DNA of 53,925 nucleotides from IMG/VR virus record IMGVR_UViG_3300032782_000361. One strand, 5' to 3'. Source of the DNA: a virus. Positions within the stretch are counted from its first letter, which is position 1, and each line of letters opens with the position of its first letter. A program made the translations under genes and the position numbers. Below are positions 943 to 50,323 of the stretch, in pieces. The notes under the pieces were generated by a model. That model ran no database searches, was not told the DNA's origin, and saw only the letters and a list, made by a program, of their open reading frames with translations.

Positions 943-954
943 GTCCGTACGGAC
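943..954. repeat. GTCCGTACGGAC palindromic motif copy (intergenic)
   Basis: Exact 12-bp palindrome; one of 9 exact copies in the window. Confidence 0.8.
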
Positions 955-1041
955 CTTGCAAGAAATCCCAACCAGACTTACTCTTTCCGCATGAGCACGC
1001 GTCCGCCGTAGCCGACTCCTTTCGCAAGAAAGGAGGTCGCA

Positions 1042-1146
1042 ATGAAAGTACACTGTCAATGGTGCATTCTCGCTCAGCGGCTGTCGGGACGTTTCGTCCT
1101 GTGCAGGCCCTGCTGGCGCGCGATGTACCGAAATCGGAAAGGGTAG
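1042..1146 (+). CDS. 34-aa Cys-rich (CxxC...CxxC) peptide
   Basis: Strong SD (AAAGGAGGT) 5 nt upstream of ATG; MKVHCQWCILAQRLSGRFVLCRPCWRAMYRNRKG. Confidence 0.4.
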   Translation: MKVHCQWCILAQRLSGRFVLCRPCWRAMYRNRKG

Positions 1147-1233
1147 GAGGAACCAGGAAGGCCGCGTAGAGACGCGGCGCCACGACGGGTAAGGCCGCGG
1201 ATGCGAAGGAGGAGCACACGCGAAACCGTCCAC

Positions 1234-1305
1234 GGGGGTATCGTCCAATTGGTAGGACACGAGACTGGCAGTCTCGGAACAGGGGTTCAAATCCCCTTGC
1301 CTCCA
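1234..1305 (+). tRNA. tRNA-Ala (anticodon GGC)
   Basis: Cloverleaf by eye: acceptor GGGGGTA/TGCCTCC with G3:U70, anticodon loop CTGGCAG, T-arm AGGGG-TTCAAAT-CCCCT, discriminator A. Confidence 0.8.
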
Positions 1306-1309
1306 CCCT

Positions 1310-1382
1310 GGGGAAGTAGCTCATTTGGTAGAGCGCTGCACTCGCACTGCAGAGGTGGCGGGTTCGAATCCCGTCTTCTCCA
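1310..1382 (+). tRNA. tRNA-Ala (anticodon CGC)
   Basis: Acceptor GGGGAAG/CTTCTCC with G3:U70, D-arm TAGCTCATTTGGTAGAGC, anticodon loop CTCGCAC, T-arm GGCGGGTTCGAATCCCGTC. Confidence 0.8.
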
Positions 1383-1385
1383 CCC

Positions 1386-2315
1386 ATGACCGTCTCATTG
1401 CAAGTATCGCCAGAGATCTCCGTTCCGTGGCGGTGGTTTCTCCACAAGTGGCCCGCCTATTCAATCGCGCTGGACGGGTTCGTCGAGGAGGCGCCGCGGT
1501 ACTCCGATGCCGGCCCTCACCTCAACCTAAACCATCACCAAAACGTCGACCGCTCGGCGACACGGGCGACATGCGCGCAGACCCTGATGGCGATCCGGCA
1601 GGGACTCTTCAAACGGTTCCAGCAGAACGGCGAGCCGCACGCGACCGTCTACGTCAATGACTGTGACGAAGATGTCTCGGTGAGCTGGTTTCTGCTCTCC
1701 CACCCTGCGATGGCAGTGCAGATCCTGAACCCCCTGTTGAATCGACTCGTCTCCATGGAGGACGCGCTAGACGCGACCGCCGGGGCCTACCCGTTCCCTC
1801 CGGACCTACCGGTGATTGGGGAACTAGCTTGGGTGTTCGAACCGTACCGTCAGTTTCGTGTCAGTGGACGCCTCGACGCCCGCATTGCCTCCGAATACCG
1901 AAGCATCATTCAAGATGTCTGCGGTCGAATCGAGAAGCACATCACTGGTACGGGGAGCCGCGTTCCTCTCGACACGCGGTACGAGCGCCTCGGCGGGGGC
2001 ACAGGCTGGACGATGGTGAAGGAGATCGGCGCGCAGGCGCGAACAGGGATGTTCGCCGAGGGGATCCGCGCGTATGTTACGGTCAGGGAGCGTCCCGATC
2101 ACAACTACACGTACGTGCTCGGTCGGATGTCGCCGTTCGTGCCCTTCAATCTCAAACGGATCTACGAGGCGTGTAACAACGCCGAGAACCGAAAGGTGGA
2201 TGTTTGGGGCGGATCGGATCTGGTCGGGGGGAGCCCGCGGCAGCACGGATCTACCTTACGTCCCGAGGAGTTGACTTGTCTCATCGAGGAGACCCTAAAG
2301 GCCGATAATTCGTGA
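1386..2315 (+). CDS. hypothetical protein (309 aa)
   Basis: Long ORF with non-biased composition starting immediately after tRNA-Ala; start codon uncertain. Confidence 0.5.
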   Translation: MTVSLQVSPEISVPWRWFLHKWPAYSIALDGFVEEAPRYSDAGPHLNLNHHQNVDRSATRATCAQTLMAIRQGLFKRFQQNGEPHATVYVNDCDEDVSVSWFLLSHPAMAVQILNPLLNRLVSMEDALDATAGAYPFPPDLPVIGELAWVFEPYRQFRVSGRLDARIASEYRSIIQDVCGRIEKHITGTGSRVPLDTRYERLGGGTGWTMVKEIGAQARTGMFAEGIRAYVTVRERPDHNYTYVLGRMSPFVPFNLKRIYEACNNAENRKVDVWGGSDLVGGSPRQHGSTLRPEELTCLIEETLKADNS

Positions 2316-48121: not shown

Positions 48122-48806
48122 GGCGCGCCCCCTCCAGCGTCAAACGCCCGATCGTTTGCTGAGCCTCTGCGAGCTGCGCCTTCAGGGTCCCGCACTCATC
48201 GCCGAGCTTCTGCGCGCGCTGCATCTCCTTCTGGAGGTTGCCGCGACACGTGGATAGCTCTGACTCGCGCTGAGCGATCGTCGCCTTCAACTCCGCCGCC
48301 TCCTCGCACGCGCCGATACAGGCCGTGCAGGTCACCTCGGGTGACGCGGCAGGAACCGTAGGCGTTGCCGCCCAGTCGACCGGGACGCCGTCTGCGTGGT
48401 ACCAGCCCTCGTCGCCGAACGAGATCCAGCCGTCGCGACCAACGCGGCAGCCGCGATCGCTGATGTACGTCACCTCTAGCGACGTTGGGCGATCGGCAGC
48501 GAGACAGATGATCTTGTCACCCACCCTTACGCCGCGCGCCGGCAACTCCTTCGCGCGTTCGAACCGCTTAAACCGGTTCGCGTAGTGAGTTCGCCCTGTC
48601 AGGTGCTCGTCGGAGAAAGTGATCCAGCCGCCTTGGGGTCCCGGGACGAGGGTGGAGACTCGCCTCGGCTCGTGATACTTTTTCCGGTCTATGAATTCAC
48701 CGCTGGCGCAGCTCGTCACGGCGTTGATCGGAGCTGCGTCGTCCCACACGACGATGTCGCCCGGCTTGAATCGCGTCGTGATCGTCTCCTCGTTCGAATC
48801 GTTCAT
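48108..48806 (-). CDS. hypothetical protein (232 aa)
   Basis: Track ORF; C-terminal coiled coil. Confidence 0.45.
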   Translation of the reverse strand: MNDSNEETITTRFKPGDIVVWDDAAPINAVTSCASGEFIDRKKYHEPRRVSTLVPGPQGGWITFSDEHLTGRTHYANRFKRFERAKELPARGVRVGDKIICLAADRPTSLEVTYISDRGCRVGRDGWISFGDEGWYHADGVPVDWAATPTVPAASPEVTCTACIGACEEAAELKATIAQRESELSTCRGNLQKEMQRAQKLGDECGTLKAQLAEAQQTIGRLTLEGARRGKR

Positions 48807-48984
48807 TTTCGTTCTCCCTCAGGGGTCCCGCCGTCCACAAGGGGCGCACTGTCGATTTGAATTCGACAGCCGCTACCTGTCCTGCCGTGGCACCCCTCAT
48901 CGCACGAGGCGAATCCGAAGCACACACAGAGAACAATCGCTAGCGCAACGCCCTCACCGTTATGGTCTAGAAATTGCCAGAAAT

Positions 48985-49401
48985 TCATTCGGCCACCACC
49001 CGAGACTCGTCGCGCGCTACTCCCTCGAACCGTGGAACTCGCACCCATTCGCGGGTTTTTGGATCACGTTGCCAAAATTCTAGCACGCGGAGGGTCTCGC
49101 TCATCTGGGTCGGGCCGCTGAAACAGCAGTCTACGTTTGGAGGGTCCCCCCAGAAAAGCCCGTCCGGAGCAAATTCTGACAACGGTTCCATCGGCCCAGG
49201 ATGCAGCGGATGCCAGGACATTGCCACGTTAAACGGCGTGTGGCAGTTCTGGCAGCGGATCAAGAGCAAGCAGACCTGGCGCGCGTAGAGGTTCGCAATC
49301 CGCTCGGGAGAGAAAGGGCACCACCGCGGAACCGCGTTCTCGTCCCACCACTCCGGCGGATCTACGATCCGCGAGAGGAGATCTTCGTAGCAGACGTTCA
49401 T
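48985..49401 (-). CDS. hypothetical protein (138 aa)
   Basis: Track ORF; Trp/Cys-containing. Confidence 0.4.
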   Translation of the reverse strand: MNVCYEDLLSRIVDPPEWWDENAVPRWCPFSPERIANLYARQVCLLLIRCQNCHTPFNVAMSWHPLHPGPMEPLSEFAPDGLFWGDPPNVDCCFSGPTQMSETLRVLEFWQRDPKTREWVRVPRFEGVARDESRVVAE

Positions 49402-49757
49402 CGCGCTTGGATCTTCTGTAGATGCGCGTCAATCTCGGCGTGAATGGTCCGTGCGGACCGATTGAGCGGCTCGAGTTCGTTACGCCCAAAAGGCCCGAAC
49501 TCCTTGTCCGTTCCCTCTATGATCCCGAAAATGATCGAGCACCTCTCGCAGCACCTCTTGGCGCGCTCCACTACCGCCCCCTCGTGCCCCTGAAAGTCCA
49601 AGCCCGAACATTCAGGATCTACACGGACCACTCGGAACTTCGCGCCAGCCGGCCAAAATTTCCGCCGGAGCCACCAGAAGATCCCCCTTCGACCGCCCAG
49701 AGCCCGCGCTCCCTCCCAGAGCTGATCGGCCTCCGCCCAGAAAATCCGCTCCCGCAT
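49398..49757 (-). CDS. hypothetical protein (119 aa), last gene of the minus block
   Basis: Track ORF. Confidence 0.4.
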   Translation of the reverse strand: MRERIFWAEADQLWEGARALGGRRGIFWWLRRKFWPAGAKFRVVRVDPECSGLDFQGHEGAVVERAKRCCERCSIIFGIIEGTDKEFGPFGRNELEPLNRSARTIHAEIDAHLQKIQAR

Positions 49758-49821
49758 AGGACACTGCTTACCACGCGCTTTTGCGATTGTCTAGCACGTC
49801 CTTCGCTGTTAGGGTCGGCGG

Positions 49822-49929
49822 ATGCGAATTCGAGCGGTGTCGGAGCTGGTATGGGCGGTACTGACGGTGCTCGTCGCGGCAACCGCGGCGATTGGTGTGT
49901 CGGAGCTGATGTGGAAATTGGTCCGTTAA
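49822..49929 (+). CDS. 35-aa hydrophobic peptide
   Basis: MRIRAVSELVWAVLTVLVAATAAIGVSELMWKLVR in the divergent gap; preceded by CTGTTAGGGTCGGCGG. Confidence 0.25.
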   Translation: MRIRAVSELVWAVLTVLVAATAAIGVSELMWKLVR

Positions 49930-50032
49930 CCACCAACCCATTTTCGAAATCCGCGGGGCGCAAGAACCGTGCCAACCTCCGACGACGATAGCTAGCGATC
50001 AGGGGTGGATTGTCAGCCCGTTCGGTGGTAGG

Positions 50033-50323
50033 GTGCGGGCGGTGCTGACGAAGACCAAATCGATTCGCGCGGAGCGTCGAGCGCAAGCGGAGAAACGCCA
50101 GAAGGTCCGTGCGGACCGTTCCCCCGAGCAGCAGCTCGAGTGGCTCGATCAGAAATTCGGCACCGGTAAGGGCGCGACCCGCGAACGGATCCGCCTCCTC
50201 GAACAGATCAAGCAGGCCGCGCCGAAGGCAACGCCAAAGGCCGCAGCGAAAAAAGAGACGCCAGCCAAACCCGCCCGAAAGGGAACCTCCCAAAAGGAGA
50301 CCTCCCAAAAGGAGACCAAATGA
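50033..50323 (+). CDS. Lys-rich hypothetical protein with tandem SQKET repeat
   Basis: Track ORF; its 3' end contains the tandem DNA repeat ACCTCCCAAAAGGAG x2. Confidence 0.4.
   Translation: MRAVLTKTKSIRAERRAQAEKRQKVRADRSPEQQLEWLDQKFGTGKGATRERIRLLEQIKQAAPKATPKAAAKKETPAKPARKGTSQKETSQKETK

Follow-up and report, generated by a model that had tools for sequence, protein, structure and literature searches.

The window analysed here, a 53,925-nucleotide stretch of viral DNA (IMG/VR record IMGVR_UViG_3300032782_000361), repeatedly carries the 12-bp palindrome GTCCGTACGGAC, which raises the question of what this sequence does in the genome. The window holds nine exact copies and five copies with one mismatch, and these 14 copies compare with 0.23 expected and a maximum of 2 in 100 dinucleotide-preserving shuffles of the window. 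When exact copies were counted on both strands, 18 were present against 0.01–0.02 expected under an order-2 or order-3 Markov model. The first-pass annotation had described an over-represented palindrome and proposed a count against shuffled sequence as a check, and the description is upheld by that count. Its coordinates are also correct except for two, each of which was one off (6422 is 6423 and 50106 is 50105). The copies, listed without strand, are located as follows.

943..954, exact copy, directly 3' of the TAA stop of the + strand gene 760-942 and upstream of tRNA-Ala genes; 3' flank CCTTG
5609..5620, exact copy, intergenic, 9 nt past tRNA-Arg(tcg) 5526-5599; 3' flank CTTTTG
6423..6434, one-mismatch copy GACCGTACGGAC, deep within the + strand gene 6322-6627; no A/T arms
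9571..9582, exact copy, 27 nt past the stop of gene 9101-9544 and also 30 nt into the called gene 9541-9876 (PTH2-like)
13401..13412, centre variant GTCCGCACGGAC, in a 600-nt divergent gap of the database gene calls between 12763-13299 (- strand, SAM lyase) and 13901-14806 (+ strand), 60 nt upstream of the -35 box of the SAM-lyase promoter (TTGACG-17-TAGGTT)
21436..21447, exact copy, deep within the 2046-aa ORF 20020-26160 (- strand)
28956..28975, exact copy (12-mer start 28960) with both arms (AAAG-GTCCGTACGGAC-CTTT), intergenic between two - strand genes, 3 nt past the stop of the upstream gene when read on the - strand
31423..31434, exact copy, within the + strand gene 30998-31501, 67 nt ahead of its stop; 5' arm AAAAAC
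36901..36912, exact copy, within the - strand gene 36859-37065, 42 nt ahead of its stop; a promoter TTGACA-17-TAGGGT lies 50 nt downstream (- strand)
39830..39841, centre variant GTCCGTGCGGAC, about 35 nt past the stop of the S12-like gene (- strand), intergenic in the database gene calls; its T-run GTTTTT on the + strand is antisense to the adjoining genes
40324..40335, exact copy, preceded by AAAAAG on the - strand and overlapping the last codons of a called 59-aa - strand ORF; on the - strand it is followed by 8 nt, TTGACA-17-TAGGTT, 6 nt and the ATG of the S12-like gene, a leaderless promoter
42364..42375, exact copy, 58 nt past the stop of the + strand GH5 cellulase gene 40498-42306 and within the 3' end of the convergent - strand gene 42303-42644; flank CTTTTC
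49447..49458, centre variant GTCCGTGCGGAC, within the - strand gene 49398-49757, 49 nt ahead of its stop
50105..50116, centre variant GTCCGTGCGGAC, within the + strand gene 50033-50323, 72 nt past its start

Four of the five one-mismatch copies are altered at the two central bases, and the change is a transition every time. The T-runs previously noted at 5609, 28960, 40324, 42364 and 13401 are all present, and the remark that other copies sit inside ORFs in different frames holds for the gene calls, where both strands and two reading frames are represented among such copies.

The window belongs to a contig of at least 101 kb from a huge uncultured phage, and the motif is also found on three more contigs of 105, 73, and 43 kb, all from one metagenome. 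These three contigs probably belong to the same phage, an indirect assignment based on the shared sample, one 100% overlap, G+C content, and tetranucleotide signature. Together, the window and the related contigs provided 40 nonredundant sites in ~171 kb, 26 of which come from contigs tied to the phage only indirectly. The phage genome is probably larger than 300 kb, and the density of sites is fairly even, about one per 4–5 kb, over all of its accessible parts. The motif is absent from relatives. In 185,579 species-representative genomes, we found 25 single matches in unrelated taxa, consistent with chance, and no bacterial genome with multiple copies; the motif is thus not a host-genome repeat.

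The 171 kb contain 34 exact copies, 9 with one mismatch, and 12 with two; the two centre positions account for five of the nine single mismatches. In full, the element extends to a 22-bp dyad, aaAAG-GTCCGTACGGAC-CTTtt. Its half-site consensus is symmetric, with A at -3 in 50, A at -2 in 45, and G at -1 in 51 of 72 half-sites, although these arm counts are inflated because the 26 related-contig sites were retrieved with a probe requiring CTTT on one side. Half-sites alone show no enrichment. Variation in one arm is independent of the other, as complementarity between the flanks is no higher at any offset than with shuffled arms, which would also give a mean stem extension of 1.22 instead of the observed 1.05. 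Nothing is common to the copies beyond ~22 bp, no two flanks sharing more than 18 of 30 identities, and the copies show no target-site duplications, their flanks forming an inverted rather than a direct repeat. A MITE or longer mobile repeat was rejected on the flank identity and the inverted-repeat flanks. The motif is likewise not confined to a repeated gene family, as had been stated before.

Noncoding DNA holds 18 of the 40 sites and 16.5% of positions (p = 2e-5), and the share of these sites in co-directional, convergent, and divergent gaps follows the space that each class offers. This strong preference for noncoding gaps suggests a link to gene expression. A gene 3' end lies within 70 nt of 27 of 36 sites, whereas 8.9 were expected and the maximum in 2000 randomisations was 19; about 10 sites begin 0–4 nt past a stop codon. 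Neither strand nor positional polarity of the sites was seen along the 105-kb contig or the window. Two sites, both on a contig assigned to the phage only indirectly, lie exactly within the 17-nt spacer of leaderless sigma70-type promoters, in the same register (TTGACT-N17-CAAATT-N6-ATG and TTGACG-N17-CATCTT-N6-ATG). Both of these promoters belong to back-to-back divergent pairs, so that no neighbouring gene's transcript would traverse the sites, and the adjoining genes have no Pfam match. As 39 of the 48 leaderless-type promoters of the phage have no nearby site, the motif is not a general promoter operator, and the variable spacing between site and -35 box (8–14 nt and more) leaves no fixed activator geometry.

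The reading that we favour, tentatively, is that the motif represents dispersed double-stranded DNA sites for a predicted sequence-specific homodimeric protein that the phage itself most likely encodes. The palindrome looks more like the putative binding site of a two-part protein than a transcription stop signal. This is supported by the extreme over-representation and sharp conservation without compensatory change, by symmetric half-sites with independently varying arms, and by T-runs that are unrelated to gene ends. In addition, the sites are enriched in noncoding DNA and occur in all gap types, two of them lie in promoter spacers, the core hairpin is weak (-3.8 kcal/mol) in a phage that has strong terminators elsewhere, and the motif is neither a longer repeat nor a host-genome repeat nor enriched as half-sites alone. 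While the motif, its dyad structure, its positions, and its independence from transcription direction are observed directly, we infer protein binding, the identity of the protein, and the effect of binding. Each monomer would read one half-site of aaAAGGTCCGT|ACGGACCTTtt; in AGGTCC-GTAC-GGACCT, the half-site centres are 10 bp apart, and the central GTAC may be a partly tolerant spacer. The sites occupy the noncoding or weakly constrained DNA that a tightly packed genome leaves free: the few bases past a stop, the final codons of an ORF, gaps between convergent or divergent genes, and stretches just upstream of leaderless sigma70-type promoters; twice, a site lies inside such a promoter. The bound protein would act regardless of orientation, possibly as a stoperator-like roadblock or insulator at transcription-unit borders and as a classical repressor at the few promoters with a site in the spacer.

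Among the Pfam families listed for genes called in the window, no recognised DNA-binding family appears, and those listed for this part of an incomplete genome include no repressor or integrase family. Points counted against a dimeric protein include the 39 of 48 promoters with no site, the variable spacing to the -35 box, the lack of a candidate binder, the indirect assignment of the contigs that hold 26 of the 40 sites, and the probe that inflated the arm counts.

Similar unexplained repeats are already known in other phages. A close published comparison is with the repeats of Cluster O mycobacteriophages, which we count as an analogue in favour of a dimeric protein. Corndog and its relatives carry more than 30 copies of a 17-bp repeat, 5'-TGTTCGGNNNCCGAACA, with an invariant 7-bp inverted repeat and a variable centre; 14 of 34 (about 40%) are intergenic and the rest coding, and the authors predict a dimeric DNA-binding protein and identified none (PMC4351075). 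Both systems have invariant inverted arms, a tolerant centre, tens of copies, mixed locations (14 of 34 intergenic there and 18 of 40 here), an orientation unrelated to transcription, SigA/sigma70-type promoters, and no identified binder. However, the sequences (TGTTCGGNNNCCGAACA and GTCCGTACGGAC) and the host lineages are unrelated, and our motif has a 4-bp centre and A/T-rich outer arms and belongs to a huge uncultured phage (probably >300 kb). Moreover, the in-gene copies lie near 3' ends here and near 5' ends there. The likeness is one of analogy, not homology.

Cluster A stoperators, bound by the L5 gp71-type repressor, offer a second comparison. These are 13-bp asymmetric sites of temperate phages, oriented with transcription and recognised by a monomeric repressor (PMC9283540, PMC5559632), and asymmetry and orientation with transcription characterise true stoperators (PMC4351075, PMC5559632). 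In both systems, ~20–30 near-identical short sites occupy short intergenic gaps genome-wide, a few overlap promoters as operators, and a roadblock to elongating RNA polymerase has been proposed. Our sites share the many intergenic and promoter-overlapping copies (18 of 40 intergenic, two in spacers), whereas they are perfect dyads, free of orientation, with arms unrelated to gene direction, and nothing indicates that the phage is temperate. The operator or stoperator family suggested by the first-pass annotation is retained in part: the near-invariant dyad, centre-only tolerance, independent arms, occurrence in all gap classes, and two promoter spacers favour it, while the palindromic sites are unlike asymmetric stoperators and no candidate binder was found.

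A bolder reading, which we consider quite improbable, sees in the palindrome the address of a "punctuation" or self-marking system that spans the whole genome of a huge phage. Some 70–100 identical sites, about one per 4 kb in a genome of >300 kb, would be loaded with a dedicated phage protein. This protein would divide the genome into insulated transcription units or, alternatively, would organise or protect the phage DNA or flag it as self during infection. If true, this would be a chromatin-like control layer not yet described for huge phages.

The main rival to a dimeric DNA-binding protein, which we regard as possible but somewhat unlikely, places the function in RNA. Formed at the 3' ends of mRNA and tRNA transcripts, a small hairpin GGUCC-GUAC-GGACC would terminate transcription intrinsically (weakly, and often in both directions), stabilise the 3' end, or be recognised by a phage factor for termination or processing. 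In agreement with this, 27 of 36 sites lie near gene 3' ends, as expected of an intrinsic terminator, whose place is just downstream of a gene or operon; roughly 10 sites directly follow stops, and one lies 9 nt after a tRNA. The A/T arms are also a real part of the motif, and they improve the fold from -3.8 kcal/mol for the 12-mer (4-bp stem) through -7.1 for the 14-mer to -10.6 with both arms. However, an intrinsic terminator has a G+C-rich hairpin, typically of at least 5–7 bp and about -8 kcal/mol or better, whereas 20 of 40 sites have no extension past the 4-bp core stem and the minimum-energy fold omits the hairpin in several native contexts. In favour of an RNA role, two sites, of the six-pair version, satisfy a minimal filter for terminators, which asks for a T-tail and at least 6 bp of stem.

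The T-runs do not behave as oriented U-tracts. Where a gene end comes in, runs of at least three T occur on 12 of 30 sides, and elsewhere on 19 of 50 (odds ratio 1.09, p = 1); in co-directional contexts, an upstream A-run alone is present at 12 sites and a downstream T-run alone at five. In favour of a hairpin, runs on both sides are found at the convergent-junction sites L105 1096 and L084 10000. The arms are not co-conserved, and stem covariation is absent: no compensatory pairs were seen among the copies, 34 of which are exact with single mismatches mostly in the loop or centre, so that one fixed sequence, loop included, stands in place of a varied stem. The sites in divergent-promoter gaps are not crossed by the transcripts of neighbouring genes, and site L124 8678 directly follows a strong canonical terminator, of which the phage has ordinary examples elsewhere. 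A terminator scan of the window showed no enrichment of terminator-like sites and did not detect the motif sites. The "sequence-constrained mini-terminator" proposed earlier thus finds no support as a general explanation, given the 4-bp stem, the half of sites with no extension, the unoriented T-runs, and the strong terminators elsewhere.

Sequence-conserved terminators are known from a jumbo phage, which speaks for an RNA role. In phiKZ, experimentally mapped terminators with real RNA 3' ends share a conserved motif, a long degeneracy-tolerant G+C-rich stem followed by TTAT in the direction of transcription (PMC10914365). Both phages have dozens of copies of a recurrent stem-loop at gene ends; here, however, the stem is 4–6 bp, the sequence is invariant, and the T-runs are not gene-oriented. 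The phiKZ terminators are counted against a dimeric protein (PMC10914365), and the strong lean to gene 3' ends, with hairpin and T-run at several sites, also fits an RNA-level role.

Very unlikely, in our judgement, is a selfish or recombinogenic mini-palindrome of the REP or T4 PeSL kind, which would have no dedicated regulatory role, would spread or persist in tolerant noncoding spots, and might provide short homology for the gain and loss of gene cassettes. REPs are 20–40-nt imperfect palindromes of host chromosomes that have a conserved head and go with a RAYT transposase, and T4-type PeSL cassettes include a promoter and are much longer. Our motif resembles both as a short palindrome at gene 3' ends, between convergent genes, and occasionally flanking foreign genes, but it has neither REP nor PeSL features. 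Recent spread or homogenisation would explain the almost complete identity of the copies (34 exact). The occupation of noncoding gaps in proportion to space and the absence from relatives also count in favour; moreover, the GH5 cellulase gene, which looks horizontally acquired and lies on the strand opposite to its neighbours, is bracketed by two copies with a common CGTCCGTACGGACCTTTT. This is the only bracketed cassette seen, however, and the ~22-bp limit of common sequence, the inverted-repeat flanks with no target-site duplications, and the lack of a known mechanism for mobilising a 12–22-bp unit point the other way. The Pfam hits listed for genes of the window include no RAYT or other transposase family, and no bacterial genome carries multiple copies. 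REP/RAYT elements proper were rejected on the 25 single matches in 185,579 genomes and the absence of a Y1-transposase family among the window's Pfam hits.

We are similarly very doubtful of a recognition site for another DNA transaction, such as T5-like nicking, lagging-strand priming, ParB/KorB-like organisation or partition, or modification and self-marking. The fairly even density in a genome probably exceeding 300 kb would suit such a role, and the dyad and its occurrence within genes indicate selection at the DNA level, but the sites lack polarity along the 105-kb contig or window and strongly prefer noncoding gaps. For parS/ParB (KorB OB-type), the sites are evenly dispersed, and the listed Pfam hits of the window's genes include no ParB, nickase, or methyltransferase family, with over half of the genome unseen. 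A restriction or modification target of the BsiWI type, the methylation link suggested in the first-pass annotation, found no support: CGTACG and GTAC occur at expected frequency, the centre variants destroy CGTACG, and its 64 occurrences (54–67 expected), 22 of them outside full sites, show neither avoidance nor enrichment there.

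The palindrome GTCCGTACGGAC occurs at 14 places in the window when up to one mismatch is allowed.

Start positions of GTCCGTACGGAC in the window, from the one-mismatch search
943, 5609, 9571, 21436, 28960, 31423, 36901, 40324, 42364: exact copies (n = 9)
6423, 13401, 39830, 49447, 50105: one-mismatch copies (n = 5)

Dinucleotide-preserving shuffles contained 0.23 copies on average and 2 at most, against the 14 observed, and Markov models of order 2–3 predicted 0.01–0.02 exact copies; a chance origin is excluded, and the over-representation claimed in the first-pass annotation is borne out by the shuffles. 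The T-runs that it described beside copies are also present, and its coordinates stand except for two that were off by one (6422 for 6423 and 50106 for 50105). Four of the five one-mismatch copies are altered, by transition, at the two centre bases only. Over ~171 kb, we counted 34 exact, 9 one-mismatch, and 12 two-mismatch copies, with five of the nine single mismatches at the centre positions. A degenerate copy, GTCCGTACGACC, which differs by two mismatches or by the loss of a single G, is found at 53876–53887, 39 nt from the window end, the same point at which the ENA contig ends. The only tandem pair seen is at 7202–7243 of locus L015, where an exact copy is followed 18 nt on by a one-mismatch copy (GTCCGTACGGAT).

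The 858-aa ORF at 14860–17436 of the window is encoded on a 101,461-bp ENA metagenome contig, three fetched stretches of which are 99.995–100% identical to the window, and the window sequence was recovered from other assemblies at 100% identity (one SNP). Its gene content is phage-like, with small, densely packed genes and few Pfam matches, and includes an HNH endonuclease, SAM lyase, UDG, NUDIX, GH5 cellulase, and ribosomal protein S12-like gene. No close DNA relative was found among cultured or deposited phages. Further copies were sought by scanning for GTCCGTACGGACCTTT, and multi-copy contigs came from a single JGI sample, Ga0335082 (IMG/VR 3300032782), with lengths of 105, 73, 43, and 8.8 kb. 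This sample contains the same phage, since its 8.8-kb contig and the ENA contig are 100% identical where they overlap, immediately left of the window. The 105-, 73-, and 43-kb contigs share their G+C content and promoter grammar with the window, and their tetranucleotide correlations with it are mostly 0.88–0.95 (0.76 for the short locus L115); values for other contigs are 0.63–0.85. These common features indicate that the three contigs are probably parts of the same genome as the window, linked by composition and promoter grammar and not by a direct join; if they belong together, that genome would exceed 300 kb. After duplicates were removed, 40 sites remained in ~171 kb.

Folding the sites onto the dyad axis gave the consensus aaAAG-GTCCGTACGGAC-CTTtt, a 22-bp dyad (duplex AAAAGGTCCGTACGGACCTTTT). 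Half-sites carry A at −3 in 50 of 72 cases, A at −2 in 45, and G at −1 in 51, frequencies that are inflated because the loci of the 26 sites outside the window were retrieved with a probe requiring CTTT on one side, a bias that could not produce an association with gene direction. Sharing between copies ends at roughly 22 bp and the best flank identity is 18/30, on which ground a longer mobile element was rejected. Neither the half-sites by themselves nor CGTACG showed any enrichment, the latter occurring at the expected frequency. Written as AGGTCC-GTAC-GGACCT, the half-sites have centres 10 bp apart, the spacing expected for a dimeric protein.

The position of the sites relative to genes was analyzed with the database gene calls for the window and with a codon-usage gene caller trained on those calls, which reproduces 80 of 82 database stop positions. 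Fully non-coding sites make up 18 of 40, compared with 16.5% of positions (p = 2e-5), and a gene 3′ end lies within 70 nt of 27 of 36 sites, where 8.9 were expected and 2000 randomizations reached a maximum of 19. About ten sites follow a stop codon within 0–4 nt, one starts 9 nt past a tRNA, and those inside genes are concentrated in the final 70 nt of the ORFs. The intergenic sites fall into ++ (8), +− (4), −− (3), and −+ (2) gaps; co-directional, convergent, and divergent gaps are occupied in proportion to the available space. A fixed genome-wide strand orientation, to which the mostly plus-strand T-runs of the window pointed, was not upheld in other contigs or along the 105-kb contig.

The phage has a clear promoter grammar, which makes it possible to locate the sites with respect to transcription units. 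It is of sigma70 type, TTGACA-N16/17-TA(C/G)GTT (the −10 box also given as TAnnTT), with the ATG 6–7 nt past the −10 box, so the mRNAs are leaderless. We found 48 such promoters in 171 kb, for example in the loci L124 and L115 of contig Ga0335082_10000065 (~3–29 kb) and at 8180, 17527, and 40290–40317 of the window; this regularity suggests a host with efficient leaderless translation. An early-type region within the 105-kb contig contains nine back-to-back divergent promoter pairs that lie 3–15 nt apart and each drive operons of one to four small genes. Five sites are located 8–14 nt upstream of a −35 box; one of them is the window copy at 40324, ahead of the S12-like gene promoter. Two more occupy a 17-nt promoter spacer, in the same register and each time in the rightward member of a divergent pair, and would be crossed by no neighboring gene's transcript. 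A promoter element or fixed-spacing activator site was rejected: of the 48 leaderless promoters, only 9 are within 60 nt of a site, at variable spacing, and the other 39 have none nearby.

We infer, with slightly less than even confidence, a homodimeric and probably phage-encoded protein, its binding to the dispersed sites, and its effect. Most sites sit at transcription-unit borders, directly past a stop codon and shortly before the next leaderless promoter; the protein bound there would form a roadblock or insulator that works in either orientation, and at the two spacer-embedded sites it would be a direct repressor. No recognized DNA-binding family is among the Pfam families listed for the window genes, and Pfam and PHROG searches of the large proteins and of the genes beside the promoter-embedded sites returned no DNA-binding candidate.

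The strongest rival to protein binding, which we nevertheless consider unlikely, is an RNA hairpin acting as a terminator, stabilizer, or factor-recognition element. The strong 3′-end bias of the sites and the genuine A/T arms favor it, as do the dozens of shared-motif terminators in the jumbo phage phiKZ (PMC10914365). As RNA, the core forms a 4-bp stem of −3.8 kcal/mol, which becomes −7.1 with the G/C and −10.6 with both arms, and in several native contexts the best fold lacks the hairpin. A hairpin role predicts that the left and right arms of one site pair, yet the arms are no more complementary, at any offset, than arms shuffled among sites, and the stem extension is absent in 20 of 40 sites. 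Likewise, a terminator role predicts a T-run downstream of the incoming gene, but a T-run is found on 12 of the 30 sides that face an incoming gene end and on 19 of the 50 that do not (odds ratio 1.09), and in co-directional contexts 12 sites have only the upstream A-run and 5 only the downstream T-run. Ordinary long-stem terminators are present in this phage, for instance at 17466–17504 after the vault-like 858-aa gene, and another lies directly upstream of a motif copy. Taken together, the unpaired arms, undirected T-runs, ordinary terminators elsewhere, invariant sequence, and tolerant centre form a pattern that fits two half-sites read independently on double-stranded DNA. The first-pass annotation had offered two readings; its operator or stoperator is favored on these grounds, and its mini-terminator is disfavored as a general explanation. 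The search against Rfam returned tRNAs only.

Two weaker rivals are both improbable: a selfish or recombinogenic palindrome, where nothing supports mobility besides two copies bracketing the cellulase gene, and another DNA transaction (nicking, priming, partition, or marking), for which neither polarity nor an associated enzyme was seen.

Among 185,579 bacterial and archaeal genomes scanned, the motif gave only 25 single hits in unrelated taxa, several of them in a conserved Bacteroidota coding region. These are consistent with chance, and a host-genome repeat was rejected. Among relatives identified through the vault-like protein, neither eight IMG/VR loci (~50% amino acid identity) nor LR756500/LR756501 (44%) contain the motif or any comparable palindrome. 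The contigs related through the S12-like protein (L141 and L142) have neither synteny nor the motif. A different motif, (aac)GGTTCGCTTCTC-N11-13-GGTAnnAT, which is not a palindrome, recurs at least six times at 1864–10420 of L142 (IMGVR_UViG_3300031197_000012) and resembles a promoter specific to that phage, with an extended −10 box.

To our knowledge, among short near-invariant dispersed phage repeats (stoperators, Cluster O palindromes, and T1/TLS repeats), a mechanism is established for stoperators only. The element described here, from an uncultured huge phage, is a new member of a class that is already known but little understood, that of palindromic repeats dispersed through phage genomes. 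By analogy, it is closest to a 17-bp repeat known from Cluster O mycobacteriophages, TGTTCGGNNNCCGAACA, whose arms are invariant around a variable centre and which occurs 34 times in Corndog (PMC4351075). Fourteen of those copies are intergenic, they follow no orientation rule, and a dimeric binder was predicted by the authors (PMC4351075). The present motif may work like this repeat and perhaps like stoperators, although it lacks the asymmetry and orientation that define the latter (PMC5559632, PMC9283540); it likewise lacks the hallmarks of intrinsic terminators, REP/RAYT elements, and MITEs. The example is unusually clean and comes from an uncultured huge phage with almost all gene functions unassigned. 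A cognate protein, if found, would provide a regulator and regulon for a huge phage and could be developed into a compact part, a roadblock or insulator that functions in either orientation; the hairpin, if right, would extend the sequence-conserved terminators of phiKZ to a very different huge-phage lineage.

Several genes of the window deserve mention. The S12/S23-like ribosomal protein gene (39876–40280, minus strand; PF00164, E = 1e-34) has a leaderless promoter, TTGACA-17-TAGGTT, with the ATG 6 nt later, and homologues of 57–69% identity on L141 and L142, without surrounding synteny. The 858-aa protein (14860–17436, plus strand) matches the major-vault-protein shoulder and repeat domains (PF11978, 3.7e-28; PF17795); its relatives, at 44–53% identity, occur only in viral contigs of 115–436 kb and in the huge phages LR756500 and LR756501 (462 and 735 kb), and the terminator after its gene (17466–17504) is strong, with a 17-bp stem. 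The GH5 cellulase gene (40498–42306, plus strand; PF00150, 1.1e-50), on the strand opposite to all its neighbors and flanked by the copies at 40324 and 42364, both with CGTCCGTACGGACCTTTT, looks like an acquired auxiliary gene cassette. A SAM-lyase-like gene (DUF3293/S-AdoMet_lyase; 12763–13299, minus strand) is also opposite to its neighbors. The 2046-aa ORF at 20020–26160 (minus strand) has no Pfam or PHROG match and contains one motif copy, at 21436. Fifteen tRNA genes form a cluster at 1234–9964 (plus strand), of which the one at 9888–9964 received a tRNA-SeC call, anticodon UCA (Rfam tRNA, 53.6 bits); yet 57 of the 82 called genes stop at TGA, more than at any other stop codon, and the call may represent a UGA suppressor or a miscall. 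A weak match to PTH2, a peptidyl-tRNA hydrolase, lies at 9541–9876 (plus strand), and an HNH endonuclease gene is encoded beside the tRNA cluster at 9977–10531 (plus strand).
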